Part shown: piece after piece, positions 5,530 to 53,617 of the stretch
Layout of the letters: every line of letters begins with the position of its first letter
Position numbering within the stretch: position 1 is the first letter of the stretch
Assembly (NCBI GenBank): GCA_963740185.1
Contig: CAVUDH010000001.1
Coordinates: 386,839-450,838, forward strand
DNA: 64,000 nt
DNA from: an uncultured Verrucomicrobiae bacterium
Lineage (GTDB): Bacteria > Verrucomicrobiota > Verrucomicrobiia > Chthoniobacterales > JAATET01
Direction: 5' to 3'
The notes under the pieces: generated by a model
What the model was told of the DNA's origin: nothing
What the model saw: only the letters and a program-made list of their open reading frames with translations
Database searches by the model: none
Translations under genes and position numbers: made by a program

Positions 5530-5628
5530 CGTGCGGAATAAACGCTGAATCTCCAACAATATGCAATGCCCCCGGCGCGAAATATTGCGAGACTCGACAC
5601 GCTCCACACCGCCCCCTAGCGTCCCGCC

Positions 5629-5967: not shown

Positions 5968-5973
5968 ACGACC

Positions 5974-6008
5974 ACTCGAAAATCCAAACTCGAAACTCGA
6001 AAATCTCA
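5974..6008. repeat. Heptamer array (ACTCGAA AATCCAA ACTCGAA ACTCGAA AATCTCA)
   Basis: Five 7-nt units that end on the actP ATG. Confidence 0.85.
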
Positions 6009-24824: not shown

Positions 24825-27002
24825 CGCGCTCTACCACGAGCAGGCCGCCCCCGAGATTACCGACCAGCAATACGACGCGCTCTACGCCGCGCTCGTCGCC
24901 CTCGAAGCCGCGCACCCCAATCTCGTCACCGCCGACTCGCCGACTCAGACCGTCGGCGGCCACGCCATCCTCGACGCCTTCCAGCCCGCCCAGCACCTCG
25001 TCCGGATGCAGAGCCTGGACAACACCTACTCCGAAGCCGAAGTCGCCGAATTCGTCCGCCGCATGCAGCGCCTCCTCCCCGGCGAAGACATTCCGCTCAC
25101 CGTCGAACCCAAGGTCGACGGCGTCGCGATCTCCCTCCTCTACGAAGGCGGAAAATTCGTCCGCGCCGTGACCCGCGGCGACGGCACCACCGGCGACGAC
25201 GTCACCGGCAACGCCCGCACCATCCGCTCGATTCCCGACACCCTCCTCGGCCCGGCCCCGGATCGCATCGAAATCCGCGGCGAAATCTACCTGCCAAAAA
25301 CCGAGTTCGTTCGCGTCAACGCCGAACGCGACGAAGCGGGTCTCCCCGCCTTCGCCAACCCTCGCAACACCGCCGCCGGCACGCTGAAACAGCTCGACTC
25401 CCGCGTCGCCGCCTCGCGCAACCTCGGGGCCGTCTTCTACGGATTCGGCCTCATCGAAGGCGACGCCCCCGGCACGCAATCCGCTTTCATGGATTGGCTC
25501 AAAAGTGCCGGCCTCCCCACTACCGAATGGCAGCGCCTGACCACCACCATCGACGAAACCCTCGCGGCCATCCGCGAACTCGGCCACGTCCGCCATGACT
25601 TTGTCTTCGAAACCGACGGAGCCGTCCTCAAAGCCAACCACCTCGAGCAGCAACGCGCCCTCGGCTCCACCAGCAAAGCCCCGCGCTGGGCGATGGCCTA
25701 CAAGTACGAATCCGAGCAAGCCGAGACCCGCCTCCACGACATCACCGTCCAGGTCGGCCGCACCGGCGTCCTCACCCCCGTGGCGGAACTCGATCCCGTC
25801 ACCGTGAGCGGCAGCAACGTCGCCCGCGCGACCCTGCACAACGAAGAAGAGATCGCCCGCAAAGACATCCGCATCGGCGACACCGTCGTCATCGAAAAGG
25901 CCGGCGAAGTCATCCCCGCCGTCATCCGCGTCCGCACCGACCTTCGCACCGGCGACGAACGCACGTTCGAGATGCCCACCCACTGCCCCGCCTGCAACGA
26001 CCCCGTCGTGCGGGAAGACGGCTTCGTCGCCGTTCGCTGCGTCAATCTCCACTGCCCCGCGCAAACCACGCGCCTGCTCGAGCACTTCGCGATGCGCGGC
26101 GCGCTCGACATCGAAGGCCTCGGAGACAAGGTCGCCCTCACCCTCGTCGAGCGCGGCCTCGCCCGCTCACCGCTCGATCTCTTCGACCTCACGCTCGACG
26201 TCCTCGGCCCGCTCAACCTCGGCACCACCGAAGAGCCCCGCACCTTCGGCGAAAAGAACGCCCGCAAGCTCCTCGACGCCCTCGAACGAGCCCGGACCGC
26301 CCCGCTCTGGCGCTGGCTTTTCGCCCTCGCCATCCCCGACATCGGCGCCGTCACCGCCCGCGACATCGGCGAACTCCACCCCGACCTCGCCGCCGTCGCC
26401 AACTCCGAAATCCTCCGCGACACCGTCCGCCTCCACGCGCTCAACGAACAAATCACCCGCGAAAATCCCGCCAGCCGCTCCCACAAGGATCTCCCAAAGG
26501 AAGAACGCGAAGCGATGAAGCCCGCTTGGGAAACCCTCAAGCAAACCGCCGACGAACTCGCCGAAAAACTCATCGCCGCTCACGCCGCTTCACCATCCAA
26601 GGCCCAGGGCAAGGCTCCCCGCGACGCCAACACCCGGATCGGCCCCGTCGCCGCGACCGCCGCACTCCGATGGTTCGAGAGCGAACCCGGCCGCCAACTC
26701 CTCGCCAAGCTCACCGCCCACGGCATCAACCCGGTCGCCGAACCGCCCACCACCGCCGAATCCACCGACGGTTGCCGTTCACCGGAAAAACCTTCGTCAT
26801 CACCGGCACCCTCAGTCAGCCCCGCGACGAGATCGCCGACGCGATTCGCCAACACGGCGGCAAAGTCACCGGCTCGGTCAGCGCAAAAACCGACTACCTC
26901 GTCGCCGGCAACGAAGCCGGCAGCAAACTCGAAAAGGCTCAAAAGCTCGGCCTCAAAATCCTCGACGAGCCAGCGTTCCAAAAGTTGCTCAACCCGTCTT
27001 AA
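24754..27002 (+). CDS. ligA: NAD-dependent DNA ligase, frame break (missing base) near 26771-26773
   Basis: Adenylation motif [13 protein letters not shown]/Zn finger CPACN...C.N..CPAQ, HhH repeats. The BRCT domain ([14 protein letters not shown]...) is in the next frame (ORF 26526-27002). Confidence 0.9.
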
Positions 27003-30291: not shown

Positions 30292-31494
30292 TCACTCCAC
30301 CAACGACCGATACAACTCCACCGTCCGCTCCGCGATCGCGTCCCACCCGAACGTCTCCTCCGCGCGCCTCCGTCCCGCCTTCCCCATGGCCGCCTGCTTC
30401 TCCGGATCGCCCATCACCGAATTCACCGCCGCCGCCAACGCCTTCGCAAAAATTTCCGGGTCCCGCGGCTCGAACGGACTCTCGTCCATCTGATCCAGCG
30501 GCACGAGAATCCCCGTCTCGCCGTCGACCACGACCTCCTTGATTCCCCCCACCGCACTCGCGACCACCGCCGTGTCGCACGCCATCGCCTCGAGGTTGAT
30601 GATCCCGAACGGCTCGTAAATCGAAGGGCAAACGAACACCCCCGCGTTGCTGTAAAGCTCGATCTTCGTCGGCGTGTCGACCATCTCCTCGATCCACACG
30701 ATCCCGCCACGATCCTGCTGCGCCCGCGCGACCGCCGCCTTCATTTCCGTCGCGATCTCCGGCGTGTCCGGCGCGCCCGCGCACAACACGACTTGAAACC
30801 CCGGATCCATGTGCCGGATTGCGTTCACCAAGTGAATAATCCCCTTCTGCCGGGCAATCCGCCCGACGAACAGCGCGTAGGGCTGCGTCGGGTCGACACC
30901 CAATCGCTTCAGAGCCGCCGTGGAATCCGTGTGTTGATATTCGTTCAGATCGATCCCGTTGTAGATGATCGGGACCCGCTCTTCCGGGATGTCGAACAGT
31001 CGCAAAATATCCGCCCGGGTCTCCTTCGACACCGCGATCACCGCGTCCGCCATCTCCATCGTCGTCTTCTCGAGCCAGCTCGAAAAATCGTAGCCGCGCC
31101 CGAGTTGCTCCCGCTTCCAGGGCCGCAACGGCTCGAGGCTATGAACCGTCACCACCAGCGGAATCCCGTAATTCATCTTCGCCAACAACCCACCGAAGTG
31201 GGAATACCAAGTGTGGCAATGCACGAGATCCGCATCGATCCCCGCCGTGTTGAAATCCAAACACCGCTGCACCGCACCGAAAGCGGATCGCAATTCCTTC
31301 GGGCACTCCATCGCCGAACTATCGACCCCAAAACCCCGCGCCGTCAGCCGCCCCTCGGACGTGTCCTGATCGCCAAAACACCGCACCTCCACGTCCACGA
31401 ACTTCGCCAATCCCCGGCTCAAATAATCCACGTGAACCCCCGCCCCCCCGTAAATATTTGGCGGATACTCGTTGGAGAGGAGAAGAGCTTTCAT
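30292..31494 (-). CDS. glgA: GT4 glycogen synthase (Corynebacterium-type GlgA-like)
   Basis: MKALLLSNEYPPNIYGGAGVHV.YL...L. C-terminal E..G...LEAMA GT4 motif. Symbol is tentative. Confidence 0.72.
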   Translation of the reverse strand: MKALLLSNEYPPNIYGGAGVHVDYLSRGLAKFVDVEVRCFGDQDTSEGRLTARGFGVDSSAMECPKELRSAFGAVQRCLDFNTAGIDADLVHCHTWYSHFGGLLAKMNYGIPLVVTVHSLEPLRPWKREQLGRGYDFSSWLEKTTMEMADAVIAVSKETRADILRLFDIPEERVPIIYNGIDLNEYQHTDSTAALKRLGVDPTQPYALFVGRIARQKGIIHLVNAIRHMDPGFQVVLCAGAPDTPEIATEMKAAVARAQQDRGGIVWIEEMVDTPTKIELYSNAGVFVCPSIYEPFGIINLEAMACDTAVVASAVGGIKEVVVDGETGILVPLDQMDESPFEPRDPEIFAKALAAAVNSVMGDPEKQAAMGKAGRRRAEETFGWDAIAERTVELYRSLVE

Positions 31495-31622
31495 CGCCGT
31501 CGACGCTACCAGAGCAAACCCGCCATTTCCAAGCTCCCAGCCAGCCAGTATCCCCCATCCCCTCACGCTGGCTCGCAATTCCCTCGCCCCTCGCCGCCTC
31601 CCCGGGCAAAACCTTACCGGAC

Positions 31623-32864
31623 ATGCGCATCGTTTTCGCGTCCCTCGGCTCGCTGGGCGATCTCCATCCGCTTCTCGCGCTCGCCCGCACCGCCGCCGAC
31701 CGCAGCCACGTCCCGATCGTCGCCACTTCCATCGGCTTTCGCGATTACGTGATCGGCCTCGGGTTTGAGCATCGTTCCCTTCGCCCCGATTTCGATTTCG
31801 AACCCCAGCTCGTCGACCACCTCTTCCACCCGACCAGAGGCCCCGAGCGCCTGATGCGGGAGCAAGTGTTCCCAAACGTTCGCGCCACCTACGACGACCT
31901 CCTCGCCGCTACGTCAGACGCCGACCTCCTCGTCGTCGGCGAGCTTCTCTACGTCGCCCCACTCGTGGCCGCCACCCGGGACATCCCCTGGGCCAATGCC
32001 ATCCTTGCTCCCACGTCGTTCCTTTCCGCTGACGACCCCTGCATTCTCGCCCCGGCCCCGTGGCTCCACCCACTCCGACACCTCGGCCGCTGGCCGCACA
32101 AACTCACCTTCGCTCTCGGTCGCCTCGTCACCAACCGCTGGGGCAAACCGCTCGCCAGACTTCGCGCCGAACTCGGCCACCCACCGGCTCCCAGCCCCAT
32201 CTTCGACGCCAAACATTCCCCGCACCTCACCCTCGCGCTTTTTCCGGAATTCCTCGGCTCGCCCCAGGCTGATTGGCCCGGACAAACTGTTCAGACCGGT
32301 TTCCCCTTCTTCGAGCAACCCATCGCGGACGACATCGCCGATCGGCTCGCCAACTTTCAGTCAACCGGTCCAGCTCCTTTCGTCTTTACTCTCGGATCCT
32401 CTGTCGTGCACATCGCTCGGGATTTCTACCCCACCGCCGCCCGCGTCGCGCAACGCCTCGGCCACCGCGCCATCCTACTCACCGGGAGCAATCCCGCCCC
32501 ACCCGATCTCCCCCCGACGATCCTCGCCATCGACTACGCCCCCCTCGACCGCGTCCTCCCCGGAGCCTCCGCCGTCATCCACCAGGGCGGCATCGGCACC
32601 TGCGCCGAAGCCCTCCGTCACGGCGTGCCCTCGCTCATCATCCCCCACGGCTTCGATCAGCCGGACAATGCCGACCGCCTTCGCCGCCTGGGTGTCGCCC
32701 GCGTCCTCGCCCGTCACCGGGTTTCCGAGACCACCCTCGCCGACAAACTCACCAGCCTCCTTGCCACCCCCACGCCCAGTCTTGCCGAGCAGATCGATCC
32801 GGCCCACGACCTGTCCGACTCCCTCGACGCACTCGAGCGGATCGTCCGGCCCGCCGCCCGCTAG
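31623..32864 (+). CDS. GT1-family (MGT/UDP-glycosyltransferase-like) glycosyltransferase
   Basis: MRIVFASLGSLGDLHPLLALAR. C-terminal donor-binding HQGGIGT..EAL..GVP....P...DQ..NA. Confidence 0.75.
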   Translation: MRIVFASLGSLGDLHPLLALARTAADRSHVPIVATSIGFRDYVIGLGFEHRSLRPDFDFEPQLVDHLFHPTRGPERLMREQVFPNVRATYDDLLAATSDADLLVVGELLYVAPLVAATRDIPWANAILAPTSFLSADDPCILAPAPWLHPLRHLGRWPHKLTFALGRLVTNRWGKPLARLRAELGHPPAPSPIFDAKHSPHLTLALFPEFLGSPQADWPGQTVQTGFPFFEQPIADDIADRLANFQSTGPAPFVFTLGSSVVHIARDFYPTAARVAQRLGHRAILLTGSNPAPPDLPPTILAIDYAPLDRVLPGASAVIHQGGIGTCAEALRHGVPSLIIPHGFDQPDNADRLRRLGVARVLARHRVSETTLADKLTSLLATPTPSLAEQIDPAHDLSDSLDALERIVRPAAR

Positions 32865-35800
32865 ACGCTCCCGACCACGCTGCTCCCGCCGAGCGCCGTT
32901 CCAACCTCCCCGACCCAACCCGAATCCGGCAGCGCATACGGTCGAAAAATCTCCATCGTCCCCGAATGATCGCTGTAAAGGATCGCGCGATGCAGCCCCA
33001 AATTCCCCGCCCGTGGCGAGTCGATCAAGCTCGCCGAATCGTTCGCGCTCATCTGAAAAACCACCCTCATCTCGAACTCCGACAGCGCCTTCCGGTTGAT
33101 GAACCGCCCCACGCTATTGAAACCATCGACCGACGCCAACACGTGCATCCCCAGCGCTCCACCCTCCGCAATCAGTTCGCCAAACTGCGAGGCCGCGCTC
33201 GGACCACTCTCCGACATCGAGAAGTCGAACTCGTCCGCCGCCCGCAGTTTCCGAAACCGCTGCAGCCCGTGCACCAGCAGGAACGTCTCCACCGCATCGC
33301 CCCCAGCCCCACCGTTCTTCCGTCGTTCCAACTCCCCGCCCAGCATCGCCATCACTTCCTCCAGATGCTCCGCTCCCCCCACCGTCACGTCGTGCCCGAC
33401 CGCGCCCACCATCTCCTCGACAAACCGCCAGCCCGCCGAATCCGACGCCAACTGGTGCAATAAAATCAACCGCACCCCGCCCACCGGATACTGCGCCGAC
33501 AGCGCGGCCAACGACACCCCCAGCATCGCCAGCGCCGCATCGTCCCGCTGCCCCACGATGAGCAGATTGCTCCCACTCTGCCGCGCGAACCGGGCCTCGG
33601 TCGGCCCCTTGATCGAATTCGGCGCCCCCAGCCACACCCGCGCCTCCGGCGGCACCGCCGTCGGACGCACCCGCAGCGCGTGCGCCAGCACCGGATTCTT
33701 CCCGCACCTCCGCCGGCGCGTTCCCCTCGAAGACCACCGGAGCCGCGTCCATTTCCGGACTCGCCTCCGCCATCGCCCGCACCCGATCCAATTGCGCATC
33801 CCGTTCCTCGTCCGACAGCCAGCACACCTGAAACGGACTGTTCCCCTCCATCGCCCCCGACGCGTCGTTGTAAATCCCCTCGCCCGGACGCGACAGCAAC
33901 CTCGGCGCGGCATTGTCATCATCCATGATCAAATACGCGTCCGCCTCGTTGCATTGCAGCGCCACCCGGATCGCCATCTGCCCCAGCGTCGCCCGCGCCA
34001 GCGAGTACGCCCCACCCAAAGTCTGCGACCCCAGGATCACGTGAATCCCAAACGCCCGCCCCTGCCGCACGATCCGGTCCAGCAACACCGACGCACTCTG
34101 CGCCGTCGCGTCGTCCTCCACGAAAAATTCCTGAAACTCATCGATCATCAACAACGTCCGCGGCAACGCCTCAAAATCCTCGCCACTCTCCGCCTCCCGC
34201 CGATAACCCGCCAGATCCTGAACCCCCGCCTTCCGAAACAGATCTCCCCGCCGCCTCAGTTCTTCATCCAACCGCTCCAGCACGCTCAGCCCAAACTCCC
34301 GATCGCTCTCCACCGCCACCACCCGCGCGTGCGGCAGCCGCTTGCTCGCGTAGCACTTGAACTCCACGCCTTTCTTGAAATCGATCAGGTAAAATTCCAC
34401 CTCCCTCGGACTGCACGTCAGCGCCAGATTCGTCACGATCACGTGAAACAACGTCGATTTTCCCGACCCCGTCTTACCCGCGATCAACGCGTGCTGCCGC
34501 GTCCCCTTCCCGATCGCCAGCATCTGCTGCTTCGTCGCGCCCGACCGGCCGATCGCCACCCGCAGCTCCCGCGTCGTATCGCCCTCCCACAACACCTCCG
34601 GCGCGATCTGATCGAACGGCACCTCCACCCGGTTCGAATCCACGCTCGCACTCCCCAGAACCTCGATAAACTTCAACCCGAGTTCCGCCGACGGAGCCGC
34701 GTCGAGCGCCAGGCGTGCGTCCGCCCGCACCGTCCCGCAGTCCAGCGTCAATCCATCCCGCCCCCCCTGCACGCCCACACTGCTCGAGCGCAATTCCTCG
34801 GCCGGAAAGCCCGTCGGCAACGCCTGCCGCCGGTCCCAATGAATCAGCGTGTGGACCCCGCACCGCGGCCCGCTCGTAATCACGCTCTGCAGCCGCTTGA
34901 CCGCCGTCTCACTGAACCCCGCCGGAAAATCCGCGATCACCAGAAAGTGATACTTCTCCGCCGTGCTTCCCGCCCGCTCGTTGTATTCCGCGATCGTCGC
35001 GTATTCGTCGCGCAGATACATCTGGATCACCTTCTCGATGTGCGCGTTCAACTCCGCCAGCCGCTCCTCGATCTGATCCGGCTGCGTCCAGATCCGCCGC
35101 GTGATCAGACTCTCCTCGTAATCCCCCAGGTGCATCAGTCCTGCGAAGTTTTGGCCCAGCCCGACCGGGTCCAGAATCGTGAAACTCAGCTTCCCCGGCG
35201 GCGTCGTCGCCAACAGCCTCAGGATCACCTGATTCAGACACGACATCACCGCCCCATCCACCGCCCCCGGCGTCTCGAACAACAGCGACCCCGTCTCCGG
35301 AAACGTCAACGCCAGCGGAATCGACACCTCCCGCGACCCCGGCAACTCCAACCGCGAATCCGCCGCCATCGGCACCTCCACCTCGAGTCGCGCAAATTTC
35401 GTCGCCAACAAAAACCTCTCCGTCGGCTCCCAACCCTCCACAAATTCCGTCGTCCACTCCGGAAACGCCTCCGCCGCCAACGCGTTCACTTCCCCGATCT
35501 CCGCGTAGATCGGCTGGATCTCCGACTCCCACCGCTCCACCAGCTCCCCCCACCGCCGCTCCCGCTCCGCCTCGAAGACTCCCCGAGCCTCCGCATTCCC
35601 CGCCCGCGCCGCTTCACCCGCGCTCCGCCCCGCCGCCTCCAGCTTCGTCAGCCGCTCACCCACCTCCCGCTCCAGCCGGGCCAACCTCGCATCGACCAAT
35701 TCCTCGTTCCGCGCCAAAGCCCGCGGCACCGCCGCCCGCAACCGCTCCCGCTCCCGCGCCGCGAAACCCGCCTTCTCCTCGTCCGCCCGCTCCATCTTGT

Positions 35801-36725
35801 TCCCGATCTCCGCCTCCAGCGCCGCCTCCTCGTCCGCGATCCGTTTCAGTTCCCCCTCGTATCCCGTTTCCGCCGCCAGCCGAGCCGCCGCGAACCCCGC
35901 CCGCGCCCGGTGCACGGCTGAAACCACCCGTCCCGCGCGCTCCCGCGATTGCACCCGAGCCAGGACGTGCAGCGCCACCAAACCGACCCCCACCAATCCA
36001 CCCACCGTCAACAGCCGGGTCCAATCCGCCGTCCCCGCCTGCTCGCCAAACCAATAAACGGCGAACCCCACCGCGCCCAGCGACACCGGCAACGGCGCGA
36101 AACTCAGCACCCGCGGCAACACCAATTCCCGAAACTCCGCCAACTCCCGCTCCGCCTCGTCCAGCGCCGTCTCCACGTCCCCCGTCGTCTCCACCGCCCC
36201 CTTCCCCCACTGCAGCCGCACCAGATAGCTCAAAAACCCCGTGAACGAATCCCGCGCCCTTCCCCGCAACTTCCGCAACCTCACCGCCTGCCCCGCCAGC
36301 ACCGCCTCCGCCCGACCTTCCTCCGCCGCGCCCCGTTCCGCCGCCAATTCCCGCGACCGCGACACGTGCCGCATCTGCAACTCGCCCAGCCACCGCTCCC
36401 GCACCTTCTGCGCCCGCACCGGCAGCGTCCGCAGCGCGTCCCGCCCCGCCACCTCGATCCGCTCACGCCGGCCCGCGCGCACCTCCGCCAATCTCGCCCG
36501 CTCCGCCTCCAAAAACTCCCGCGTCGCCCCCGCACCCCGCGCATCCTCCGCGACCGCCGCCGCAACCCGCTCCTCCGCCTCCCGCTCGACCTCCCGCTCG
36601 CTCAACCGCAACTCCCGCGCCAGCTCCCGCTCCTCCTTGGCAAAGGCATCCAACGTCCCGTCCAGCCGCTTCAACAGCTCCAACCCCCGCCCCACGTCCA
36701 AACTTTTTAAGGCATTCTCACTCAT
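32861..36725 (-). CDS. EssC/EccC-like FtsK/SpoIIIE-family ATPase (about 1285 aa), frame break at 33701-33703
   Basis: The N-terminal ~450 aa are coiled-coil with two TM helices, followed by three FtsK-like modules. Only the middle module has Walker A GKTGSGKS (34454-34477) and Walker B LLMIDEF. The third module continues in ORF 32861-33922. Confidence 0.8.
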
Positions 36726-36760
36726 CAAACCATCAACCAATAACCATCAACCAATAACCA
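36723..36760. repeat. Heptamer array (CCATCAA CCAATAA CCATCAA CCAATAA)
   Basis: Fills the spacer between the 70-aa gene and the ATPase start on the opposite strand. Confidence 0.8.
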
Positions 36761-36765
36761 CGCAC

Positions 36766-36978
36766 TCACTCACACTCGCTCCGCACCTGACGCAAAAACC
36801 GCTCGATTCCCCCCATCCCCTCCAGCGACTTCCCGATCACCGACGGCATTGCCTCCAGGTAATCGCTCTCGAAATGATCCGCCTTCGCGTCCCGCCAATG
36901 CACCCGCACCTCCTCCCAATTTCGGGAGAGTTCCTTCCCGCTTTCGGACAAGGCGGCGGCAGTGGCTTTCAGGCTCAT
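36766..36978 (-). CDS. 70-aa helical protein with W-x-D...F motif (WXG100-like half?)
   Basis: ..NWEEVRVHWRDAKADHFESDYLEAM... ATGA overlap with the upstream gene. Confidence 0.55.
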   Translation of the reverse strand: MSLKATAAALSESGKELSRNWEEVRVHWRDAKADHFESDYLEAMPSVIGKSLEGMGGIERFLRQVRSECE

Positions 36979-37514
36979 GAGGGGAATTCGTTCGCGGAGT
37001 CGGGTTCGGCGGCGACGGTCTCAGATTCCGTCCCGCCCGCTCCGCTTCGATCAACGTAGACATCGAGCGCCCGCTGCACGTTCGATAAAAACGCGATGGC
37101 CTCCGGAAGCTCGTGGTCAGCCGCCATCCGCAGCCCCCCGAGCTGCTTCACCAGCGGGTCCACCACGATGTCGAATTGCCGCGCCCAATACTTCACCCGC
37201 CGCAGCTTCTCCTCCGCCTCGTGCAACTCCCGCCGCGACTGCGTTACCGCCTGCTGTTGCGCCGCCTTCTCCTCCCGCAACGACGACATCCTCGCCGCCA
37301 GCAACTCCTGCTGCGCCTCGTCGACCCGCTTCGCCCGCCGCCGCACCTCGCTTTGCCAAAAAAACCGCCGGTCGTTGACCACCCACTCCCGCGTCCGCCG
37401 CACCTCCGCGTTCACCTCATCCAGCGACCGACGCGCCACCTCCGTGAACAAAATCAAACGCGACCGGAACGATCCCAACGCCTCCACCGACGTCACGTGA
37501 GCCTCGGTCGCCAT
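36975..37514 (-). CDS. 179-aa coiled-coil protein of the WXG/FtsK cluster
   Basis: Heptad-rich, charged sequence. 6-nt gap from the WXG-like gene and a 4-nt overlap with the next gene. Confidence 0.6.
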   Translation of the reverse strand: MATEAHVTSVEALGSFRSRLILFTEVARRSLDEVNAEVRRTREWVVNDRRFFWQSEVRRRAKRVDEAQQELLAARMSSLREEKAAQQQAVTQSRRELHEAEEKLRRVKYWARQFDIVVDPLVKQLGGLRMAADHELPEAIAFLSNVQRALDVYVDRSGAGGTESETVAAEPDSANEFPS

Positions 37515-37520
37515 CTCCCC

Positions 37521-37802
37521 CTACCGTTGATCCAGATACTGTTCGATCCGCTGCGCCTTCCGCATCAGGTAAGGCGTGTGCTTGTCCGCCACTTCCACAA
37601 ATCGCTTCAGCGCCTTCATCGTCACCACAAATTCCTCCGCAAATTTGTCGTGTTCCTGGTCCTGCCAACTTCCGCCCAGCGCCGCGAACCGCGCCTGCAA
37701 CGACCCCGCCCTCACCTGCACGTCCTCGGTGAACCGCTTCAACTCCGAAGCAAACCGCCGCACCTCCTCCGGATCCATAATCGCCTGCGCCATAAAATGC
37801 AT
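37521..37802 (-). CDS. WXG100-like small helical-hairpin protein
   Basis: 93 aa (or 90 from the ATG at 37793). M.QAIMDPEEVRRF... and central ..LGGSWQDQEHDKFAEEF.. parallel the EsxA pattern as I recall it (IKMSPEEIR ... NWEGQAFSRFEEQF). W codon at 37665-37667. Confidence 0.68.
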   Translation of the reverse strand: MHFMAQAIMDPEEVRRFASELKRFTEDVQVRAGSLQARFAALGGSWQDQEHDKFAEEFVVTMKALKRFVEVADKHTPYLMRKAQRIEQYLDQR

Positions 37803-37883: not shown

Positions 37884-37931
37884 TCACCAGTCACCCCCTC
37901 CACCAATCACCAGTCACCAGTCACCAATCAC
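37884..37931. repeat. Heptamer array (TCACCAG/TCACCAA type)
   Basis: Abuts the ATG of the ABC gene. Lies in the divergent promoter region shared with the WXG cluster. Confidence 0.8.
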
Positions 37932-39768
<1,837 letters not shown>

Positions 39769-39966: not shown

Positions 39967-40557
39967 TCACCAAAGCCCGCCCGGCCACGCGTCGTCCGCC
40001 TCCCGCGCCGCCGCCTCGTGCTTGTCGATGAGCGCCGTCAGCGGATCAGGTGCGCCGAGAATTTCGTCCGGCAACGCCCAGATTCTCTCAAAGGTCCGCC
40101 GCCTCGCCGTCGCCTCGTCGGAAGGATCGAGTGGATTCGCCTCCCGCGCCAAATGATCGCGCCAACTCTCGAGGTCCCGGGCCAGGGCGTGATGCCGTCG
40201 AAACCAATTCCGCGCGGTCTTCTGGGCCTCGTCCAGCCAGCGAAGCAGGTCCAATCGATCCACCGAAGCGAGTCTCGCCTCCGCCGCCGTCCGGTTCCGT
40301 TCCACTCCGGCCAGCACCGAGTGCCAGACGATCAGGAAAACCTCCGTCCGCGATCCCCGCTCCTCCTTCCGACAGGAGTCACACCAGAGTTCCTCCCGGA
40401 TGATCCCGTAAACCACGGGGCTCGAACTCAAGACCGAGCCGATCTTAAAAGTCGCCATCGCACAATCGAACTCCTTCGTCTGAAGGTCGGAAATTTCCTT
40501 CCCGCAAAACCCGCACGGAATCGCCGGCGAAAAATTGATCGTGTCGAACATCCCCAC
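39967..40557 (-). CDS. Hypothetical protein with Cys4 (CGFCG...CDSC) N-terminal module
   Basis: ORF with coding-like composition. No family recognised. GTG start, with an ATG 2 codons in. Confidence 0.45.
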   Translation of the reverse strand: MGMFDTINFSPAIPCGFCGKEISDLQTKEFDCAMATFKIGSVLSSSPVVYGIIREELWCDSCRKEERGSRTEVFLIVWHSVLAGVERNRTAAEARLASVDRLDLLRWLDEAQKTARNWFRRHHALARDLESWRDHLAREANPLDPSDEATARRRTFERIWALPDEILGAPDPLTALIDKHEAAAREADDAWPGGLW

Positions 40558-40871
40558 CCTTCCACGATAAGACGATCCTCGCCTTCATCAAGCCAAGGCA
40601 TTCGCATTCCAACTGTCGGCACCGCAATCAAGCTCCCCGCCCGCCGGGAAGCCACTTTGAATTATTCTTCCTCGCAGAGGCCCTGGCCGTTCAGCCCAGC
40701 TGGTTCCAGACGCGCTCCGGAAGCGGAAACTCGCCACCCAGCTCGGGCGGAGCTTCGTTGGGGCTCCCTCACTGCGAACCAAGACTGCAAATCAGGGACT
40801 TTTCGGTGCAGCGGGCACCTCGGAAGCCCCTTGCGTAAACCCTGGTCTACGTGCAACCGTGCTGCACGAAA

Positions 40872-41108
40872 ATGAACGTCACGTTGAAACTACCCGATCA
40901 TCTCTGTCGCGAGGCCAAACACCGCGCGATCCACGAGTCCAAATCCTTTTCACAATGGACCGCAGACTTGATCCGGCTCGAACTTGTCCGATCCCAACCG
41001 GATCGGAGGACTCTCCTCGAGCGCTTGGGAGATCCCGCGAGCGCCGATCAGGACTTCGAGCTTCCCGACCGGAACGACGATCGGGAACGACCCATCTCGT
41101 TTCGGTGA
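40872..41108 (+). CDS. vapB: VapB-type antitoxin (RHH-like)
   Basis: MNVTLKLPDHLCREAKHRAIHESKSFSQWTADLIR. Stop overlaps the GTG of the PIN gene (GTGA). Confidence 0.7.
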   Translation: MNVTLKLPDHLCREAKHRAIHESKSFSQWTADLIRLELVRSQPDRRTLLERLGDPASADQDFELPDRNDDRERPISFR

Positions 41109-41530
41109 ACGCGGTCCTACTCGACACGGTCACCATCTCCGAACTCCGCAAAGACAAACGAGCCGATCCGGCGGTCCAACGATGGCAGGAAACATCGCGG
41201 ACGTTCGAATCCTGGATCAGCGTCACGACACCTCTCGAAATCAGGGTCGGCATCCTTCGGGTGCGTCCCCGCGATCCAGCGTTTGCCGAAACCCTCGAAG
41301 CGTGGTTGCTGAACATTGTCCTGCCCGAATTCTCCGACCGCACCCTGGGGATTGACCTCACGATCGCACTCCAAGCCGCAGAATACCGGGTTCTCCACGG
41401 ACTGGCCCCCAACGACTCCCTCATCGCCGCCACCGCCAAAATCCACGGCCTCACCCTCGCCACGCGCAATGTCGCCGACTTCGCGAGCACCGGCATCGCG
41501 CTCGTCAATCCCTGGGAACTCCCCGCCTGA
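41105..41530 (+). CDS. vapC: VapC-type PIN-domain toxin
   Basis: Four PIN acidic positions in context: LLDT, TPLEI, NDSLIAATA, TRNVADF. Confidence 0.85.
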   Translation: MNAVLLDTVTISELRKDKRADPAVQRWQETSRTFESWISVTTPLEIRVGILRVRPRDPAFAETLEAWLLNIVLPEFSDRTLGIDLTIALQAAEYRVLHGLAPNDSLIAATAKIHGLTLATRNVADFASTGIALVNPWELPA

Positions 41531-41686
41531 ATTGCCACTCTCTTGCGGCTACGCACCCGCCGCACCCCCCAGCGGAACCCCGACAATCACCTCGCCCAGC
41601 GCCGGATTCAATACCTCCGCCCGCTCCACCGCCTCCGGCAACAGCCACCTCCCCACGAACGAGCCGAAAACCCTCACGAATTCAAT

Positions 41687-41954
41687 CCATCAACCAAAAA
41701 CCATCAACCGCGCCACCGGTGCCCTCGCCTTCGAAGCCGTTAACTTCCGCTACTCCTCCCGCGCCGACACCCGCCTCATCGCCAACCGCACCGCCCTCAT
41801 CATCGCCCACCGCCTGGCCACGATTCGCCCAGTCGACCGCATCTACGTGGTCGAATCCGGCACCGTCATCGAATCCGGCACCCACACCGAACTCACCGCC
41901 AACCCCCACGGCCACTACCGCCGCATCGCCGAAATGCAATTCACCCACCCCTAG
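41687..41954 (+). pseudogene. Remnant of an MsbA-like ABC gene (linker + start of NBD fused to the last ~60 codons)
   Basis: ..ALAFEAVNFRYSSRADT | LIANRTALIIAHRLATIRPVDRIYVVESGTVIESGTHTELTANPHGHYRRIAEMQFTHP*. Walker A through Walker B are missing. The 3' ~175 nt are roughly 90 percent identical by eye to 39590-39768. Confidence 0.78.
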
Positions 41955-49178: not shown

Positions 49179-50384
49179 TCAATCCGCCCCGATCTTCTCG
49201 TAGATCGGCTGCGACCGCTCGGTCGCCTCCGCGAGGATCGCGTCCGTCGCCGCGTATTGCAGATCCTCGTTCGAATACTCCTCTCCATCCACGATCCAAC
49301 CGACCAACTTCTCGTTGTCGAAATTCATGATCTCCACCTGCTTCGCGACGCCCTCGATCCCCGTGTCCCGCCCCTCGCGCACCGTGAACGTCGAGACCAA
49401 CAACCCGTCCCTGAAGTAATAGATCACGTAGGTCTCGTTCTCCTCGTCCTTACTATCCACGTAGACCAACTGCTTGATTACGTAAGCTTCCACGTAGCCC
49501 ATGGCATTCAGCTTCCGCCCCGGCACTTCGCTGTCGCGGTGCACCTTCACCTTCCTCACGGTTTCCGACTCCAGCGCCGCGTCGATCTCCGCCCGCAGCG
49601 CCTTGAACGCCGCCGCGCTGTGGTCCTTCGACTTCGCATCATCGATCTCACCCGCCGCGGCACCCCCGCCGCCCGTCGCATTCGCGGAACCGAGCACCTT
49701 CGCCTCCGGCCCGTAGTCACCCCGACTCATCAACACATTCAGCGTGCCCTCCACCGACGGCGCATCCTCCGTCCACTCCATGTCCGGCCCGCCCCGCACC
49801 GGCACCTGCCCCAGATAATTGATCGTCACCTCGACCGGATCCGTGATCATCAATTCCCCACCCGGATCCACCACACTCCCCGGCGAAAAGGTGAAAACGT
49901 AATAGTCCGCGTGCTCCGTCCCCTTCGCCTCCTCCTGCGCTGTCGCCGCCTCGCTCAGCTGCTCATCGATGTCCGCCTGCGAACCGAATTCGCTGTCGGC
50001 CTCCACCAAAATCACCGCCGTCGACTCCCACTTTCCCCCGTAGAAAAACAACCCAAACCGCGCCCCCTCCTGATACGGCCCCCACAAAATATCCAGCGAT
50101 CCATGACTCATTCCCGGGAAATACGACTGAAAATTCTCCTCGGTTCCGAGCGTCAGCACCCGCTTGTTCGTCTCGAGGCCCACGATCGAATTCGAATCAT
50201 CCCCCTCCAGCACCACGACCATCTCCCCGTCGTCCGTCGCCGAGTCGTTGAAGATCAACCCCGACCCACCATCGAAGGTGATGCTTTCCACCGCTTCCCG
50301 AGCCAACCCGCTGCTCACCCCACCAACCAACAAAATCGCCGAACAAACCCAGCGCGAAATCAACGTCTCAATCTTCAACTTCAT
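49179..50384 (-). CDS. Secreted or membrane-anchored hypothetical protein (401 aa)
   Basis: N-terminal hydrophobic signal/anchor. Start overlaps the stop of the upstream gene (ATGA). Confidence 0.6.
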   Translation of the reverse strand: MKLKIETLISRWVCSAILLVGGVSSGLAREAVESITFDGGSGLIFNDSATDDGEMVVVLEGDDSNSIVGLETNKRVLTLGTEENFQSYFPGMSHGSLDILWGPYQEGARFGLFFYGGKWESTAVILVEADSEFGSQADIDEQLSEAATAQEEAKGTEHADYYVFTFSPGSVVDPGGELMITDPVEVTINYLGQVPVRGGPDMEWTEDAPSVEGTLNVLMSRGDYGPEAKVLGSANATGGGGAAAGEIDDAKSKDHSAAAFKALRAEIDAALESETVRKVKVHRDSEVPGRKLNAMGYVEAYVIKQLVYVDSKDEENETYVIYYFRDGLLVSTFTVREGRDTGIEGVAKQVEIMNFDNEKLVGWIVDGEEYSNEDLQYAATDAILAEATERSQPIYEKIGAD

Positions 50385-52543
50385 AAATTCTCTCCGCGCT
50401 CCTCCGCCAGCAATTGGTATTCCTCAAATCCAGCCTTCATCTCCTCCGGCGCGTCCTCCGACTCGTCGTAAACCCCGAGCGCCAGGCCACTCCATCGCCG
50501 AACCTCCACCCAGTCCTCCGCCCGCGCAAACGCCACGCACAGCGCGTCAACGCTCTTCAGCGTTCTCTCATCGGCCGCCCCGAGGCGCTGCTTCCGTGTC
50601 TCATAACTCGCTTCCAGCAGCGGCACCGCCAAATCTTCAAGACGATTTACGATGTAGTCGACCGCCAGAGAATATTGATCCGCAGCCACCGCCAGCGAAT
50701 CCGCGCCGAAAAGTCGCTCCGCCGTCGCGATCTTCTCCAGCATCGCCGCCTGATACGCCTCCGATTTCTCCTGCGCATCCAACACTCGCGCCAAATCTCC
50801 CATCGCATCCACGACCTGCTCCTGATCCGGACCAATCGTCGCAACCAAGATCTCCAGCTGCCGCCGTGTCAGAGCCTCAGACTCCTCGAAGCTTTCCTCC
50901 CGGCGAAGCCGCGACGCCACCGTTCCCATCAACATTGTCGCCATCCCGCTCTCCGAACCCAACGAAGACTCCGCATCCGCCAGCAACCCCCGATAATACG
51001 CCGTCGTTTCCCCCGAGTCTCCGTGATCCGCCAAGAACATCGCCAGACCCAACCGCGCGTCCAGCGTCGCCTCCGCCCCCGGGCCATTCACCTCCGTGCT
51101 CGTCGCAACTGCCTGCCGGATCACCGTCTCCGCTTCGTCCAACCGCCCCTGATCCGCCAGCGACTGAGCGTAGGTCCAGCGGGCGCTCAACGTCCGCTCA
51201 CTCCCCGCCCCCAGCCGCTCATCCAAAGCCGCGATCACCCGTAAAAACAGCGCGTCCGCCTCCTCGAATTCATCCGCCATTCGCCTGATCATCGCCAGAG
51301 TCCAAGCCGCATCCACCGTCTCCGGAGCATCCATTCCCAATTCCCTCTCCCGGACTTCCAGCACGTGCTGCCCCAACTCAATGCTCTCCCCCAGGCTCAC
51401 CGGCCGTTCCTTGGACAGTGCCAACATCAGTTCCAGGGTCGCCGGATGTTCGCGGCCCAATTCCGGATTCGCCTCCGCCCAATCGACTCCTTCTCGCAGA
51501 ATTTCAACCGGTTCCATCGACTTCCGATCCCACCGCCCGACCAGCTCTGCCAGCGTCACGACCGTTCCCGCCCATTCCACCGGCTGCTCGTCTCGGTCCA
51601 GCAACGCCAGCCGCTCCCGATAAGCCGCGATCGCCTCCGTGTTTCGACCCAGCGCCGCCTCCCCCTCCGCCAACCTCAGCAACGCCGCCACCTTCACCGC
51701 CGGATCCGTCGCCCCAGCCACCGCCGCCTCCGCCGCCCGAATCTCCTCCTCGACCGCCGCCCGAATCTCCTCCGGCGTCCGACCCGTTGCCTTGGCCACG
51801 TTGGCCTCCGCCCTAGCCACCACGTCAACACCCCCACCATCGATCGACTCCCGCAACCGAGCCTGCTCCGCCAGCAGCATCGCGATCAGCTCACTCTGCT
51901 CATCAAGTTTGCTCGTCGTCTCGGCAATCACCGCTTCCTGCGACTGGGTCTTCGAATACAGAAAAATTCCACCCGCCACCGCGACCAGCAACGCCACCGC
52001 CGACACCACCATCGTCATCCGTCGCCTCGCCCGTTCCTTCGCCAGCTCCTTCCGCAGCCCCTCCACGCTCAACTGCAGCTCCCGCGTCCGCGAATTCAGG
52101 TCCTCTCGCGTCTCAAACTCGTAATACAGCTCATCCCGCTCCAGCAACCTCGCCCGGTGCGCCAACTGCAACGCTTGCTTGTCCTCCGGCTCGGGCTCGT
52201 GCTCGTCGAAGGGATAATCCTTCCCGCACAAAAACACGTAGCACGGCAACCCCAGCTCCACCGCGATCTCGTATTCCAGCTGCGTGAAACTCCGCCGCTC
52301 CGGCGAGCCCTCCAGCACCGGCTGCGGCTCCGCCCCGTAGTAAAATCCCGCCAGGTGCACCACCGCGTTGCACGTCTCCAGCTTCGTGCGCAACATTTCC
52401 CGCACGCTCTTGTAGTCTGGCGGAAAATCGTCCTGCACGATCGGCAGACACTCCATCCGCCTCAGTCCCTCACTCACCAACCCCCGCGCCGTCCGCAAAT
52501 CCCGGCTCGTCGCACTGACAAAAATTCTTGGAACTGGCTGCAT
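50381..52543 (-). CDS. DUF4062 (TIR-like) - TM - TPR-array protein
   Basis: N-terminus IFVSATSRDL...R..V...L......P..QDDF......V...L..K.E.CNAVVHLAGFYYG....RSFTQLEYEIA...LPCYVFL fits my recollection of the DUF4062 pattern. One TM helix (MTMVVSAVALLVAVAGGIFLY) follows KERARRR. Then about 8 KLC-type TPRs (..LG..HP.TL..). Confidence 0.8.
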   Translation of the reverse strand: MQPVPRIFVSATSRDLRTARGLVSEGLRRMECLPIVQDDFPPDYKSVREMLRTKLETCNAVVHLAGFYYGAEPQPVLEGSPERRSFTQLEYEIAVELGLPCYVFLCGKDYPFDEHEPEPEDKQALQLAHRARLLERDELYYEFETREDLNSRTRELQLSVEGLRKELAKERARRRMTMVVSAVALLVAVAGGIFLYSKTQSQEAVIAETTSKLDEQSELIAMLLAEQARLRESIDGGGVDVVARAEANVAKATGRTPEEIRAAVEEEIRAAEAAVAGATDPAVKVAALLRLAEGEAALGRNTEAIAAYRERLALLDRDEQPVEWAGTVVTLAELVGRWDRKSMEPVEILREGVDWAEANPELGREHPATLELMLALSKERPVSLGESIELGQHVLEVRERELGMDAPETVDAAWTLAMIRRMADEFEEADALFLRVIAALDERLGAGSERTLSARWTYAQSLADQGRLDEAETVIRQAVATSTEVNGPGAEATLDARLGLAMFLADHGDSGETTAYYRGLLADAESSLGSESGMATMLMGTVASRLRREESFEESEALTRRQLEILVATIGPDQEQVVDAMGDLARVLDAQEKSEAYQAAMLEKIATAERLFGADSLAVAADQYSLAVDYIVNRLEDLAVPLLEASYETRKQRLGAADERTLKSVDALCVAFARAEDWVEVRRWSGLALGVYDESEDAPEEMKAGFEEYQLLAEERGENL

Positions 52544-52666
52544 TCGATTGGCAAATATTGGGTTGGCAATTAATCTCCGCGATCACCCTAAAAAACCTCA
52601 CCCCGCACGGTCAACCCTCACGATCCCGAGCCACATTCCCCTCGCCCGCCCCGCCCCTTTTGAGCT

Positions 52667-53584: not shown

Positions 53585-53617
53585 GGTCGATTCGAAGTCG
53601 ACGAAGACGACGCCACC

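Follow-up and report, generated by a model that had tools for sequence, protein, structure and literature searches.

A four-gene locus (g1 to g4) in a Verrucomicrobiae contig reads best as a self-contained relative of the core found in type VII secretion systems (T7SS), namely the PVC (Verrucomicrobiota/Planctomycetota) form of the systems in which a solo WXG protein accompanies a three-domain YueA-like ATPase. It would act as a minimal T7SS-like machine for export or handling, and we put the probability of this reading at roughly 0.55. The analysis shows the homologies and domain architecture, a predicted transmembrane (TM) hairpin, the strict synteny of the four genes and the cassette's autonomy. 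A sequence-only reading of the same DNA had proposed a stripped-down WXG/FtsK system for export or substrate handling; this proposal was supported, and its hedged wording fits.

Open reading frame calls across the window (the whole 64-kb stretch of DNA that was analyzed) placed the four genes in the same orientation on the minus strand (Table 1). A 6-nt gap (GGGGAG) separates g1 from g2, the g2 stop codon overlaps the g3 ATG as ATGA, and the g3–g4 spacer is 40 nt given a g4 start at ATG 36725. The tight packing described previously was thus borne out, and the motifs quoted at that time are present in the sequence. The heptamer array of the spacer also exists (TGGTTAT/TGGTTGA, five copies, period 7; TRF 36728-36760), but it is not specific to the cassette, as the period-7 array is an intergenic feature genome-wide. 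Since g3 overlaps g4 in two related loci (L001 and L002), the spacer has the appearance of an insertion, specific to this lineage, of a repeat that is spread throughout the genome. As noted earlier, the cassette is flanked by a glycosyltransferase, here assigned to the GT1 type, and by an ABC exporter, and an Mla operon (MlaFEDCA, 2054-6057) lies elsewhere in the window. The extreme strand-specific third-codon bias of the host is also present in the cassette, which argues for long residence in this genome. The 64-kb window contained no further paralogues of the cassette genes.

Table 1. Features of the four-gene cassette, in positions of the window
Feature	Position	Strand	Description
g1	37521-37802	-	helical hairpin of the WXG100 family, listed at 93 aa
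g2	36975-37514	-	long helical hairpin, 179 aa
g3	36766-36978	-	shortened WXG100-like hairpin, 70 aa
g3-g4 spacer	36726-36765	-	40 nt, heptamer array
g4	32861-36740	-	EccC/EssC-like ATPase; +1 frameshift near 33,699
g4 TM hairpin, aa ~206-264	35949-36125	-	predicted by Kyte-Doolittle
g4 module 1, aa ~471-715	34596-35330	-	degenerate FtsK-like, without Walker A
g4 module 2, aa ~716-1015	33696-34595	-	sole module with canonical motifs
g4 module 3, aa ~1016-1292, shifted frame	32861-33695	-	degenerate FtsK-like
Extra base in g4	33698-33700	-	relatives read ...IRENALL...; frame shifts

The four-gene cassette is real and widely conserved in Verrucomicrobia and Planctomycetes. The order g1-g2-g3-ATPase was present in 54 of the 80 related loci that we fetched; these come from a wide range of Verrucomicrobiota and Planctomycetota, among them Singulisphaera sp. 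Ch08, whose genome is complete. The flanks were unrelated between genomes, and we found no recurrent fifth gene, as no other family occurred in more than 6 of the 80 loci within ±5 kb. The same intervals contained no other T7SS components. Synteny of the block in relatives from two phyla and the absence of other T7SS parts therefore agree with the earlier description.

As had been proposed, g1 is a WXG100 hairpin. It passed the Pfam WXG100 threshold (39.1 bits; cut-off 27.3), and the g1 family profile matched H. pylori HP0062, its best solved relative (6.6e-14), as well as EsxB/EsxA (1e-9 to 1e-6; EsxB, 2e-9). The W46-x-D48 turn was invariant in an alignment of 28 g1 homologues (alignment A3), HP0062 likewise having a W-R-D turn, and the C-terminal tail RKAxRIExYLxQR was also invariant. 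Database relatives (n=7,953), nearly all 90 aa in length, carry the label YukE or 'WXG100 family type VII secretion target'. Since almost all homologues are 90 aa and begin with MAQAIMDPEE, the true start of g1 may be ATG 37793. By sequence comparison, g3 is a shortened WXG-like paralogue of g1, in keeping with the resemblance seen previously: the two aligned with hhalign (probability 74%, E 2.9e-5), cross-matched reciprocally in jackhmmer, and WXG100 was the commonest weak Pfam match of g3 (9 of 32 members, 0 above threshold). Among the 32 g3 homologues in alignment A4, W28-x-D30 was invariant and DCE was conserved at the C-terminus.

The suggestion that the small proteins are WXG100-like hairpins held for g1 and g3 but not for g2, a predicted hairpin without WXG100 or LXG similarity. 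The coiled-coil character that had been assigned to g2 corresponds to two long helices predicted by AF2 (residues 10-76 and 80-159, pLDDT 86.6), and the protein ends in a disordered acidic/Pro-rich tail. Residues W44, W53, W110, L150 and Y153 are conserved (alignments A2 and A5). A search for the g2 domain (E<=1e-10) gave 2,288 cluster representatives, in which it is invariably N-terminal and followed by a variable C-terminus; long forms from some Planctomycetota carry a C-terminal Imm33-like domain (PF24719). No Pfam family matched g2, and fold and family searches gave no significant match. Judged by these searches, g2 belongs to no described family.

Removal of one base gives a g4 protein of 1292 aa that starts at ATG 36725 or TTG 36740. 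The two TM segments recognized earlier are adjacent hydrophobic stretches at about aa 206-229 and 241-264, preceded by a coiled-coil-like region (aa 1-205) and followed by a second helical region (aa 265-470). This hairpin was predicted in 12 of 13 family members (Kyte-Doolittle) and is absent from Helicobacter and Caballeronia plasmid relatives. Three FtsK-like P-loop modules had been described; each of them does resemble FtsK, but a P-loop is present in the middle module alone. Module 2 contains Walker A (GKTGSGKST, 34452-34478) and Walker B (LLMIDEF) motifs, both invariant columns in alignment A1, and matched Pfam FtsK_SpoIIIE at 1.9e-34 and positions 406-659 of TIGR03924 EccCa. In module 3, GQRDDAA replaces Walker A and the FQMSANDSASLIDS motif is conserved (alignment A1). 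Module 3 aligned with module 2 (hhalign 94%, E 1.5e-7, 204 columns) and with module 1 (84%, E 7.5e-6). Plausibly, only one of the three modules can hydrolyse ATP, and module 3 is a candidate substrate-recognition domain. NCBIfam scores for g4 were 124 bits for EccCa, 113 for EccCb, 83 for EssC and 28 for FtsK, all far under the family cut-offs (124 versus 509 bits). A PDB sequence search gave EccC at 1.3e-34, EccC5 at 3.9e-31, YukB at 3e-24 and FtsK at 8.6e-10. When the three modules were modelled with AF2 (pLDDT 76), the model was collinear with EccC D1-D3, and Foldseek matched it to the EccC cytoplasmic domain (3.3e-27, 892 columns), to EssC (1e-18) and to FtsK (1.6e-11). By sequence and predicted fold, g4 groups with EccC/EssC far better than with FtsK, and these searches agree with its earlier placement nearer to EccC/EssC than to DNA translocases.

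The sequence-only reading had mentioned surveys of WXG100/FtsK pairs outside Gram-positives, and such a survey exists. Footnote 6 to Table 1 of Zhang, de Souza, Anantharaman, Iyer and Aravind (2012, Biol Direct; PMC3482391) describes a solo WXG with a YueA-like ATPase of three domains, the middle one alone active, and includes planctomycetes and verrucomicrobia in its list of lineages. The class is not new, which lowers the novelty of the locus; the description is a single table footnote without mention of g2, g3 or a four-gene cassette. Solo-WXG systems include H. pylori HP0062/HP0066 (PMC3397514, PMC4978471). On a Helicobacter plasmid the gene order matches; the middle gene encodes a 340-aa protein that combines a helical N-terminal part with a toxin domain of the WHH/colicin-DNase kind, and a SUKH immunity gene, a 77-aa gene and the ATPase come next. 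On a Caballeronia plasmid, WXG100, 436-aa, 113-aa and 76-aa proteins precede the ATPase. Both share the series of WXG protein, middle helical protein, ~76-aa protein and ATPase with the cassette, whereas the PVC ATPase has ~470 more N-terminal residues, with the TM hairpin between coiled-coil-like regions, and PVC g2 has neither a toxin domain nor an adjacent immunity gene.

The ten T7SS subtypes listed by Garrett, Higginson and Palmer (2024; PMC11217815) come from two Gram-positive phyla only. The cassette resembles T7SSa/ESX of Actinomycetota in having a WXG100 hairpin pair, as in EsxA/EsxB, and an ATPase in which an N-terminal TM hairpin precedes tandem FtsK-like domains, EccC being the best sequence and fold match. 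Unlike ESX, it lacks EccB, EccD, EccE and MycP, has one active nucleotide-binding domain and W-x-D rather than W-x-G, and g4 has a long coiled-coil N-terminus before the TM hairpin. With T7SSb to T7SSj (EssC/YukB/TsxC with EsxA/TsxA; Bacillota and Actinomycetota) it shares the two universal components, ATPase and WXG100 protein, and YukB and EssC were significant sequence and fold matches of g4; however, FHA domains, EsaA, EssA, EssB and EsaB/TsxB are absent. Three reports (PMC9600955, PMC10653861, 10.64898/2026.08.24.746431) describe Gram-positive and mycobacterial T7SS toxins as needing small helical partners, in pairs or trios. By analogy, the putative complex of the cassette would resemble LXG, EsaD or EatA toxins with their partners (Lap1/Lap2, EsxB/C/D, TapA1/2), in which a long helical protein encoded between or beside two small WXG-like hairpins is passed to an EssC/EccC ATPase; the toxin and immunity gene in the Helicobacter relative add to this likeness. 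In contrast, g2 has no detectable LXG/WXG100 similarity or toxin domain, and in some lineages carries the Imm33-like domain instead.

In the proposed mechanism, g1 would pair in the cytoplasm with g3, and both would probably pack along the roughly 100-angstrom g2 hairpin, giving a composite helical bundle that would resemble the toxin and small-partner complexes of Gram-positive T7SS. The ATPase would be anchored in the cytoplasmic membrane via its TM hairpin and would oligomerise. Its degenerate C-terminal module would recognize the bundle, most plausibly by the invariant g1 tail, and the intact middle module would drive the bundle, with anything borne on the variable g2 C-terminus, into or across the cytoplasmic membrane toward the periplasm. 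Crystals of EccC ATPase domains 2-3 that include the signal peptide of a substrate have been obtained (4n1a). We infer all protein-protein contacts, oligomerisation, transport direction and export itself.

Several findings count against export. At the loci examined we found no EccB/D/E, MycP, EsaA, EssA, EssB or linked outer-membrane conduit, and in some loci the ATPase had, within 3-5 kb, g3 as its sole partner or no partner at all. In the g1 and g3 families, Asp takes the place of the Gly that is canonical for the W-x-G turn, and one plausibly ATP-hydrolysing module likewise weighs against export. We detected neither sequence nor fold similarity of g2 to LXG, WXG100 or any T7SS substrate. 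Homology between g2 and the N-terminal region of the Helicobacter toxin was not detected either, so the analogy with cargo is one of gene position only. Many g2 proteins end in the Imm33-like domain; annotation gives this family an immunity role, and immunity proteins normally remain inside the cell. Since the ATPases of the proteobacterial plasmid relatives have no TM segment, the clade is able to function other than as a membrane channel.

We regard as somewhat doubtful the possibility that the cassette works inside the cell, as a module for substrate handling or conflict (defence or toxin-immunity), and exports nothing, its ATPase remodelling or sensing the hairpin complex at the inner membrane face or acting on nucleic acid. 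The closest non-PVC relatives have soluble ATPases and lie in conflict-type islands, with an HNH toxin and SUKH immunity on the Helicobacter plasmid and a TerY/VWA-PP2C-kinase-CARF island on the Caballeronia plasmid. WxG and FtsK genes have been described alongside genes for helicases, nucleases and the TerY-P triad (PMC4978471), and Zhang et al. (2012; PMC3482391) used the term 'mobile versions of T7SS' for the solo-WXG systems. The Imm33-like domain fits this alternative, and one cassette (L002) adjoins methyltransferase, DUF87/HerA, SWI2/SNF2 and integrase genes. PADLOC models SspH and mad8 matched the ATPase domain; however, the matches span the generic P-loop domain only and score under EccC models, and a PADLOC search with the three small proteins gave no match. 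Moreover, the PVC ATPase acquired or kept its EccC-like TM hairpin, the flanks are ordinary housekeeping genes in most genomes, no nuclease or other effector gene accompanies the PVC cassette (80 loci, ±5 kb), and a Pfam search detected no DNA-binding domain.

Two other explanations concern g4 itself. Treated as one ORF in the sequence-only reading, it is split in the given sequence: the stretch spans 3880 nt (1 mod 3), an extra base within GAAGAAT on the minus strand leaves ORF 33114-36740 and the true C-terminal frame, which runs to 32861, and tblastx switched frame at 33693/33700. The public protein record for the contig (P0001) has the same out-of-frame tail. If the frameshift were real, the locus could be a decaying pseudogene remnant and the system dead in this organism. 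We consider this very unlikely. Within 13 kb, similar single-base frameshifts affect the essential or housekeeping genes LigA and ArgD as well as the ABC exporter, so that of g4 is most likely an assembly error and g4 is probably intact in the organism. ATPase ORFs were broken too in Microflora-Danica-labelled MAG loci, and g4 relatives are intact (1257-1327 aa). Both halves of g4 are open, with 60-63% identity to the closest relatives and no stops in the correct frames; g1, g2 and g3 are intact, and a contig from an independent assembly (run ERR12040027) carries g2 and g3 in identical form. A role for g4 as an FtsK/TraB/TcpA-type DNA translocase, serving chromosome segregation or conjugation beside unrelated passenger genes, is hardly credible. 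The Pfam family is FtsK_SpoIIIE and public relatives are called 'DNA segregation ATPase' or 'cell division protein FtsK', but EccC/EssC outscored FtsK and TcpA by far in sequence and fold, the three tandem domains have the EccC/EssC layout, 54 loci hold the ATPase together with all three small genes in an unvarying order, and relaxase and other conjugation genes are absent from the flanks.

For the preferred reading, a PVC form of the solo-WXG systems, the new elements are the conserved g2 and g3 partners of the WXG/ATPase pair, the invariant W-x-D turn in both the g1 and g3 families, the TM hairpin of the PVC ATPase that the Proteobacteria plasmid relatives lack, and a Helicobacter relative with a nuclease toxin in the g2 slot.

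Four minus-strand genes, g1 to g4, form a compact cassette between a glycosyltransferase gene and an ABC exporter gene. The sequence-only reading had proposed them as a minimal type-VII-like module, and the module proved to be real once two points had been corrected: g4 is frameshifted in the assembled sequence, and it carries one P-loop rather than three. The spacing of the genes is as that reading described it from the sequence. The 6 nt between g1 and g2 read GGGGAG, which is Shine-Dalgarno-like; ATGA forms the overlap of g2 with g3; and a 40-nt spacer holding a period-7 array lies between g3 and the ATG of g4 at 36725. All four ORFs show the third-codon G+C excess typical of real genes in this genome. 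When 32.6-38.1 kb was scanned for promoters and terminators, nothing exceeded shuffled controls. The MlaFEDCA operon at 2054-6057 confirms that the host is a diderm, as had been proposed from this operon.

Coordinates of the cassette, its flanking genes and the single-base frameshifts in the window
Feature	Position	Strand	Description
g1	37521-37802	-	93-aa ORF
g2	36975-37514	-	179-aa ORF
g3	36766-36978	-	70-aa ORF
g4	32861-36740	-	1292 aa once one base is removed
GT1-type glycosyltransferase	31458-32864		flank of cassette
ABC exporter	from 37932		flank of cassette
LigA (NAD-dependent DNA ligase), BRCT	~26,900-27,000		single-base frameshift, continuation readable in another frame
ArgD, C-terminus	~28,150		single-base frameshift, continuation readable in another frame
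ABC exporter	~39,570		single-base frameshift, continuation readable in another frame
g4	~33,699		single-base frameshift, continuation readable in another frame

Although g4 had been read as a single ORF, a +1 frameshift splits it in the assembled sequence, where the gene spans 3880 nt (1 mod 3). Taking one base out at ~33,698-33,700 (GAAGAAT) gives the full-length protein, and the resulting junction, ...EVRENPVLAHAL..., agrees with ...NIRENALLAKVL... and ...DIRENALLHSAL... of intact relatives. The frameshift could mean that the cassette is a pseudogene, dead in this organism. However, four genes are frameshifted within 13 kb, and the two housekeeping genes among them indicate an indel-prone, probably long-read, assembly. 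ATPase ORFs are likewise fragmented in related loci from MAGs carrying the Microflora-Danica label. A contig of run ERR12040027 has g2 and g3 in identical form. Because LigA, ArgD and the ABC exporter share the defect and the ATPases of those MAGs are also broken, the lesion in g4 appears far more likely to be an assembly indel, and a dead cassette is unlikely.

A WXG100 pattern had been proposed for g1 and a similar motif noted in g3, and both hold; g2, which had been read as a coiled coil, showed no similarity to g1 (probability 0.7% between the two profiles). g1 scored 39.1 bits against Pfam PF06013 (WXG100; cut-off 27.3), and the solved structures found by its family profile were Helicobacter pylori HP0062 (6.6e-14), then EsxB and EsxA, in support of a WXG100-like hairpin. 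It is a stand-alone protein of 90-93 aa with no toxin fusion, and nearly all of the relatives listed have 90 aa. g3 matched g1 in hhalign (74%, E 2.9e-5) and in reciprocal jackhmmer searches, and the commonest weak Pfam match of its family was WXG100; by these comparisons g3 is a shortened relative of g1. The hairpin turn is W-x-D, not W-x-G, and is invariant in 28 g1 and 32 g3 homologues. The C-terminal tail of g1, RKAxRIExYLxQR, is nearly invariant, and g3 ends in a conserved DCE. HP0062 has a W-R-D turn and an FtsK neighbour (PMC3397514), and its turn resembles that of g1 and g3, whereas the canonical type VII (T7SS) turn is W-x-G. PADLOC gave no match for g1, g2 or g3.

No family was assigned to g2 in Pfam and NCBIfam searches. 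An AF2 model predicted a long hairpin of two helices (~67 and 80 residues) with a disordered tail behind it. An exhaustive HMM search returned 2,288 cluster representatives at E<=1e-10, and the g2 domain was always N-terminal among the HMM matches. It is followed by a disordered tail or, in about half of the best 150 of the 2,288, by an extension, often with an Imm33-like domain. LXG (PF04740) matched neither g2 nor its 41 homologues, and no toxin domain was found in g2. Searched against the PDB, the AF2 model reached a best E of 0.06, with generic coiled-coil hairpins as the only matches. The type III secretion stalk protein YscO was among the fold matches (TMt 0.57), and its Pfam model weakly matched 3 of 42 family members; we treat this possible resemblance as no more than a lead. 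The g2 homologues of Tepidisphaeraceae, Sedimentisphaerales and related Planctomycetota (loci L018, L030 and L075; proteins P0024, P0264, P0327 and others) have 330-390 aa, the last part being an Imm33-like domain (PF24719) attached through a disordered linker; in other members, such as P0267, the small domain at the C-terminus is a different one.

The ATPase g4 contains three FtsK-like folds in tandem. Three P-loop modules had been claimed; only module 2 has one, since GQRDDAA occupies in module 3 (aa ~1016-1280) the position of GKTGSGKS in module 2, and module 1 lacks a Walker A motif. Profile-profile comparison showed module 3 to be homologous to module 2 (94%, E 1.5e-7) and module 1 to module 3 (84%, E 7.5e-6). 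We modelled the three modules of P0003, a 61%-identical relative, with AF2 (pLDDT 76), and the model was collinear with the cytoplasmic domain of T. curvata EccC, which holds three ATPases. Foldseek matched it to EccC 4nh0 with an E of 3.3e-27 over 892 columns, to EssC with 1e-18 and to single-domain FtsK with 1.6e-11. A sequence search of the PDB with the ATPase likewise gave 1.3e-34 for EccC versus 8.6e-10 for FtsK. NCBIfam scores of g4 were 124 and 113 bits for EccCa and EccCb (the T7SSa models TIGR03924/03925; cut-offs 509 and 347), 83 bits for EssC (the T7SSb model TIGR03928; cut-off 778) and 28 bits for FtsK, so that g4 attained none of the curated family cut-offs. From the NCBIfam, PDB sequence and fold scores we conclude that g4 is EccC/EssC-like rather than FtsK-like, as had been suggested, and that a DNA translocase is an unlikely identity for it. 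Hydropathy predicted a transmembrane hairpin at aa ~206-264, flanked by two long helical regions, and two hydrophobic segments in this position in 12 of 13 members of the ATPase family. No FHA domain was matched in g4. The PADLOC models SspH, mad8 and HerA matched the ATPase only across the generic P-loop domain, and we do not class the cassette as a known defence system.

A first whole-ATPase homology search gave at least 13 close relatives, and a genome scan then showed the family to be much larger. With one genome per species, the scan yielded at least 78 loci, nearly all from Verrucomicrobiota (Chthoniobacter, Prosthecobacter, Luteolibacter and Limisphaerales) or Planctomycetota (Singulisphaera sp. 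Ch08, a complete genome, Gemmata, Pirellulales, Tepidisphaeraceae, Phycisphaerales, Sedimentisphaerales and Kuenenia), the two phyla that we call PVC here. In the genome of Singulisphaera sp. Ch08 (NZ_CP155447.1) the cassette lies at about 5.085-5.098 Mb. Together with L001 and L002, 78 loci from the scan made up the 80 that were fetched. The order g1-g2-g3-ATPase was present in 54 of the 80, most of the remainder being truncated contigs; the four-gene block is thus syntenic in relatives. When all flanking ORFs of the 80 loci were clustered, no further family recurred in more than 6 loci, which bears out the proposed absence of other T7SS parts. EccB, EccD, EccE and mycosin were neither in the flanks of relatives nor recurrent in the 80 loci, EsaA, EssA, EssB and EsaB were absent from both, and no immunity gene lay beside the cassette in the 80 loci. 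The flanks differ completely from genome to genome. Relatives occur on plasmids, and no PVC copy was found on one. The extreme strand-specific third-codon bias of the host extends to the cassette, which argues against a recent arrival.

Four PVC loci (L009, L040, L054 and L060) have only g3 and the ATPase within 3-5 kb, and four (L010, L028, L045 and L057) have the ATPase without a small partner within that distance; either g1 and g2 may lie at another site in these genomes, or the ATPases may be paralogues that serve a different role. Cyanobacteria and Chloroflexi contain a few distant ATPase relatives (27-32% identity) in another gene arrangement (L069, L070 and L074), with a pair of WXG100 genes (91-98 aa) and a gene for a 146-192-aa protein downstream of the ATPase, not upstream. 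In the cyanobacterial L070 and L074 the 146-192-aa protein is matched by the g1 profile too; in L069 it is matched by the g2 profile alone.

The cassette is the system of Zhang et al. 2012 (PMC3482391), a class already on record as a comparative-genomics footnote. Its diderm solo-WXG systems have a stand-alone WXG protein in common with g1. Footnote 6 of its Table 1 gives an ATPase with three HerA/FtsK domains, the middle one alone being active, and g4 agrees, activity being judged from motifs; the lineages named in that footnote (planctomycetes, verrucomicrobia and other Gram-negative bacteria) match the carriers of the cassette. That class also shows signs of mobility; for the cassette, the varying flanks and the plasmid relatives speak for mobility, and the lack of a plasmid-borne PVC copy and a base composition in equilibrium with the host speak against it. 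In the literature searched, g2, g3 and the four-gene unit are not described and no experiments are reported, and searches for WXG100 or T7SS with Verrucomicrobia or Planctomycetes found no dedicated paper. A 2024 survey (PMC11217815) places T7SSa to T7SSj only in Bacillota and Actinomycetota. Like the core T7SS ATPase, g4 would be anchored by two N-terminal transmembrane helices, as predicted from hydropathy; unlike it, g4 has a single Walker A instead of nucleotide-binding motifs in each of three domains. T7SSa (ESX) encodes EccB, EccD, EccE and mycosin alongside EccC, and T7SSb has EsaA, EssA, EssB, EsaB and the N-terminal FHA domains of EssC, whereas the cassette lacks all of these. LXG toxins with Lap partners have an LXG N-terminus, a toxin C-terminus and an adjacent immunity gene, none of which accompanies g2.

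Two plasmid relatives bear on the role of g2. In Helicobacter sp. NHP19-012 the order is a WXG protein (89 aa), a 340-aa protein, a SUKH immunity protein, a 77-aa protein and the ATPase. The 340-aa protein joins a helical N-terminal region to a WHH/colicin-DNase nuclease domain, and from its middle position we infer that the g2 slot there holds a polymorphic toxin. Caballeronia pSBC2-5 encodes WXG100, 436-aa, 113-aa and 76-aa proteins followed by the ATPase, within a VWA/PP2C/kinase/CARF island. The transmembrane hairpin predicted in the g4 of PVC bacteria is missing from both plasmid ATPases. Three reports describe Gram-positive and mycobacterial T7SS toxins as targeted in a bundle with small helical partners, two or three in number (PMC9600955, PMC10653861, 10.64898/2026.08.24.746431). 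The Helicobacter toxin in the g2 slot parallels such bundles; g2 itself has no detectable homology to the plasmid middle proteins: when its HMM was run on their N-terminal halves, neither the Helicobacter toxin (E 1.6) nor the Caballeronia 436-aa protein (12 bits) gave a significant match.

Homology, architecture and synteny support the interpretation of the cassette as an uncharacterised WXG/FtsK system for export or substrate handling in a diderm. We infer the contacts, the oligomerisation and the export in the following scheme, to which we give a probability of about 0.55: a bundle of g1, g3 and g2 would be recognised and moved by the membrane-anchored ATPase. g1 and g3 would pair and pack onto the g2 hairpin, and the bundle would be recognised by the degenerate module 3 of an oligomeric ATPase, plausibly via the invariant g1 tail. 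EccC, in which ATPase domains 2-3 bind the substrate signal peptide (4n1a), provides the model for this recognition. ATP hydrolysis by module 2 would then drive the bundle, with any C-terminal payload of g2, into or across the cytoplasmic membrane.

More tentatively, the cassette could be a complete, autonomous diderm export machine, in which the ATPase alone, with a single functional nucleotide-binding domain, would serve as inner-membrane channel (12 transmembrane helices per hexamer) and deliver the W-x-D bundle of g1, g3 and g2 to the periplasm. It would then be a minimal, possibly ancestral, type VII core without the accessory proteins thought necessary in Gram-positive bacteria, and an unrecognised secretion route in thousands of environmental PVC bacteria. 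In the main rival to the scheme, the cassette might be an intracellular handling or conflict module from which nothing is exported. The soluble ATPases and conflict-island settings of the plasmid relatives point this way, as do the Imm33-like fusions on g2 and the absence from the cassette of accessory membrane proteins and of an outer-membrane component; the predicted hairpin sets the PVC ATPases apart from those soluble relatives, and we regard a purely intracellular role as less likely than the scheme.

Accounts of type VII secretion still treat it as a Gram-positive and mycobacterial system. Here its two universal components are joined by two conserved partners in a stable unit of four genes, found in dozens of species of Verrucomicrobiota and Planctomycetota at the least, and database figures give ~8,000 g1 sequence clusters. 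Breadth in PVC bacteria and minimal composition are the grounds for interest. As an exporter of protein, the cassette would be the simplest T7SS-type machine known, convenient for the question of the minimal channel and a model for the coupling of recognition to transport by one active and two degenerate ATPase domains. If it exports none, the WXG100/EccC pair would have a non-secretory role.

Other features of the window deserve mention. Its plus strand is C-rich from 1 to 64000, with a GC skew of -0.08 to -0.40 per 2 kb and a cumulative skew without a turn. Third codon positions hold 0.53-0.78 C and 0.10-0.21 G in plus-strand genes and 0.38-0.70 G in minus-strand genes. Skew is near 0 in the relatives' loci, and the asymmetry goes far beyond ordinary replication skew. 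Intergenic heptamer arrays (for example of GGTGAYT and AACCAAT types) lie at 5974, 9066, 10854, 11440, 11894, 12884, 14160, 20580, 22125, 23805, 36728-36760, 37901-37931, 38988-39024, 41682, 47145 and 61676, the array of the g3-g4 spacer (36728-36760) being one of this window-wide set. One array lies in frame within the ABC exporter ORF, with NHQSPITNHQS as the encoded peptide. For the pattern GGTGAYTGGTGAYT the count is 11 versus 0.12 expected. The arrays resemble cyanobacterial STRR repeats.

At 39,967-41,954, the 3' end of the ABC exporter is present in a second copy ~2 kb downstream of the first. Between the copies are a minus-strand 196-aa ORF (39967-40557), an RHH-antitoxin-like ORF (40851-41108) and a PIN-like ORF (~41100-41530); the duplication looks like an insertion with duplicated target or the remnant of a second exporter gene. 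At 50381-54790, a minus-strand gene for a 720-aa DUF4062 and TPR protein adjoins genes for a 2OG-Fe(II) oxygenase and a 390-aa protein without a Pfam family, a neighbourhood that may be a conflict or signalling module.
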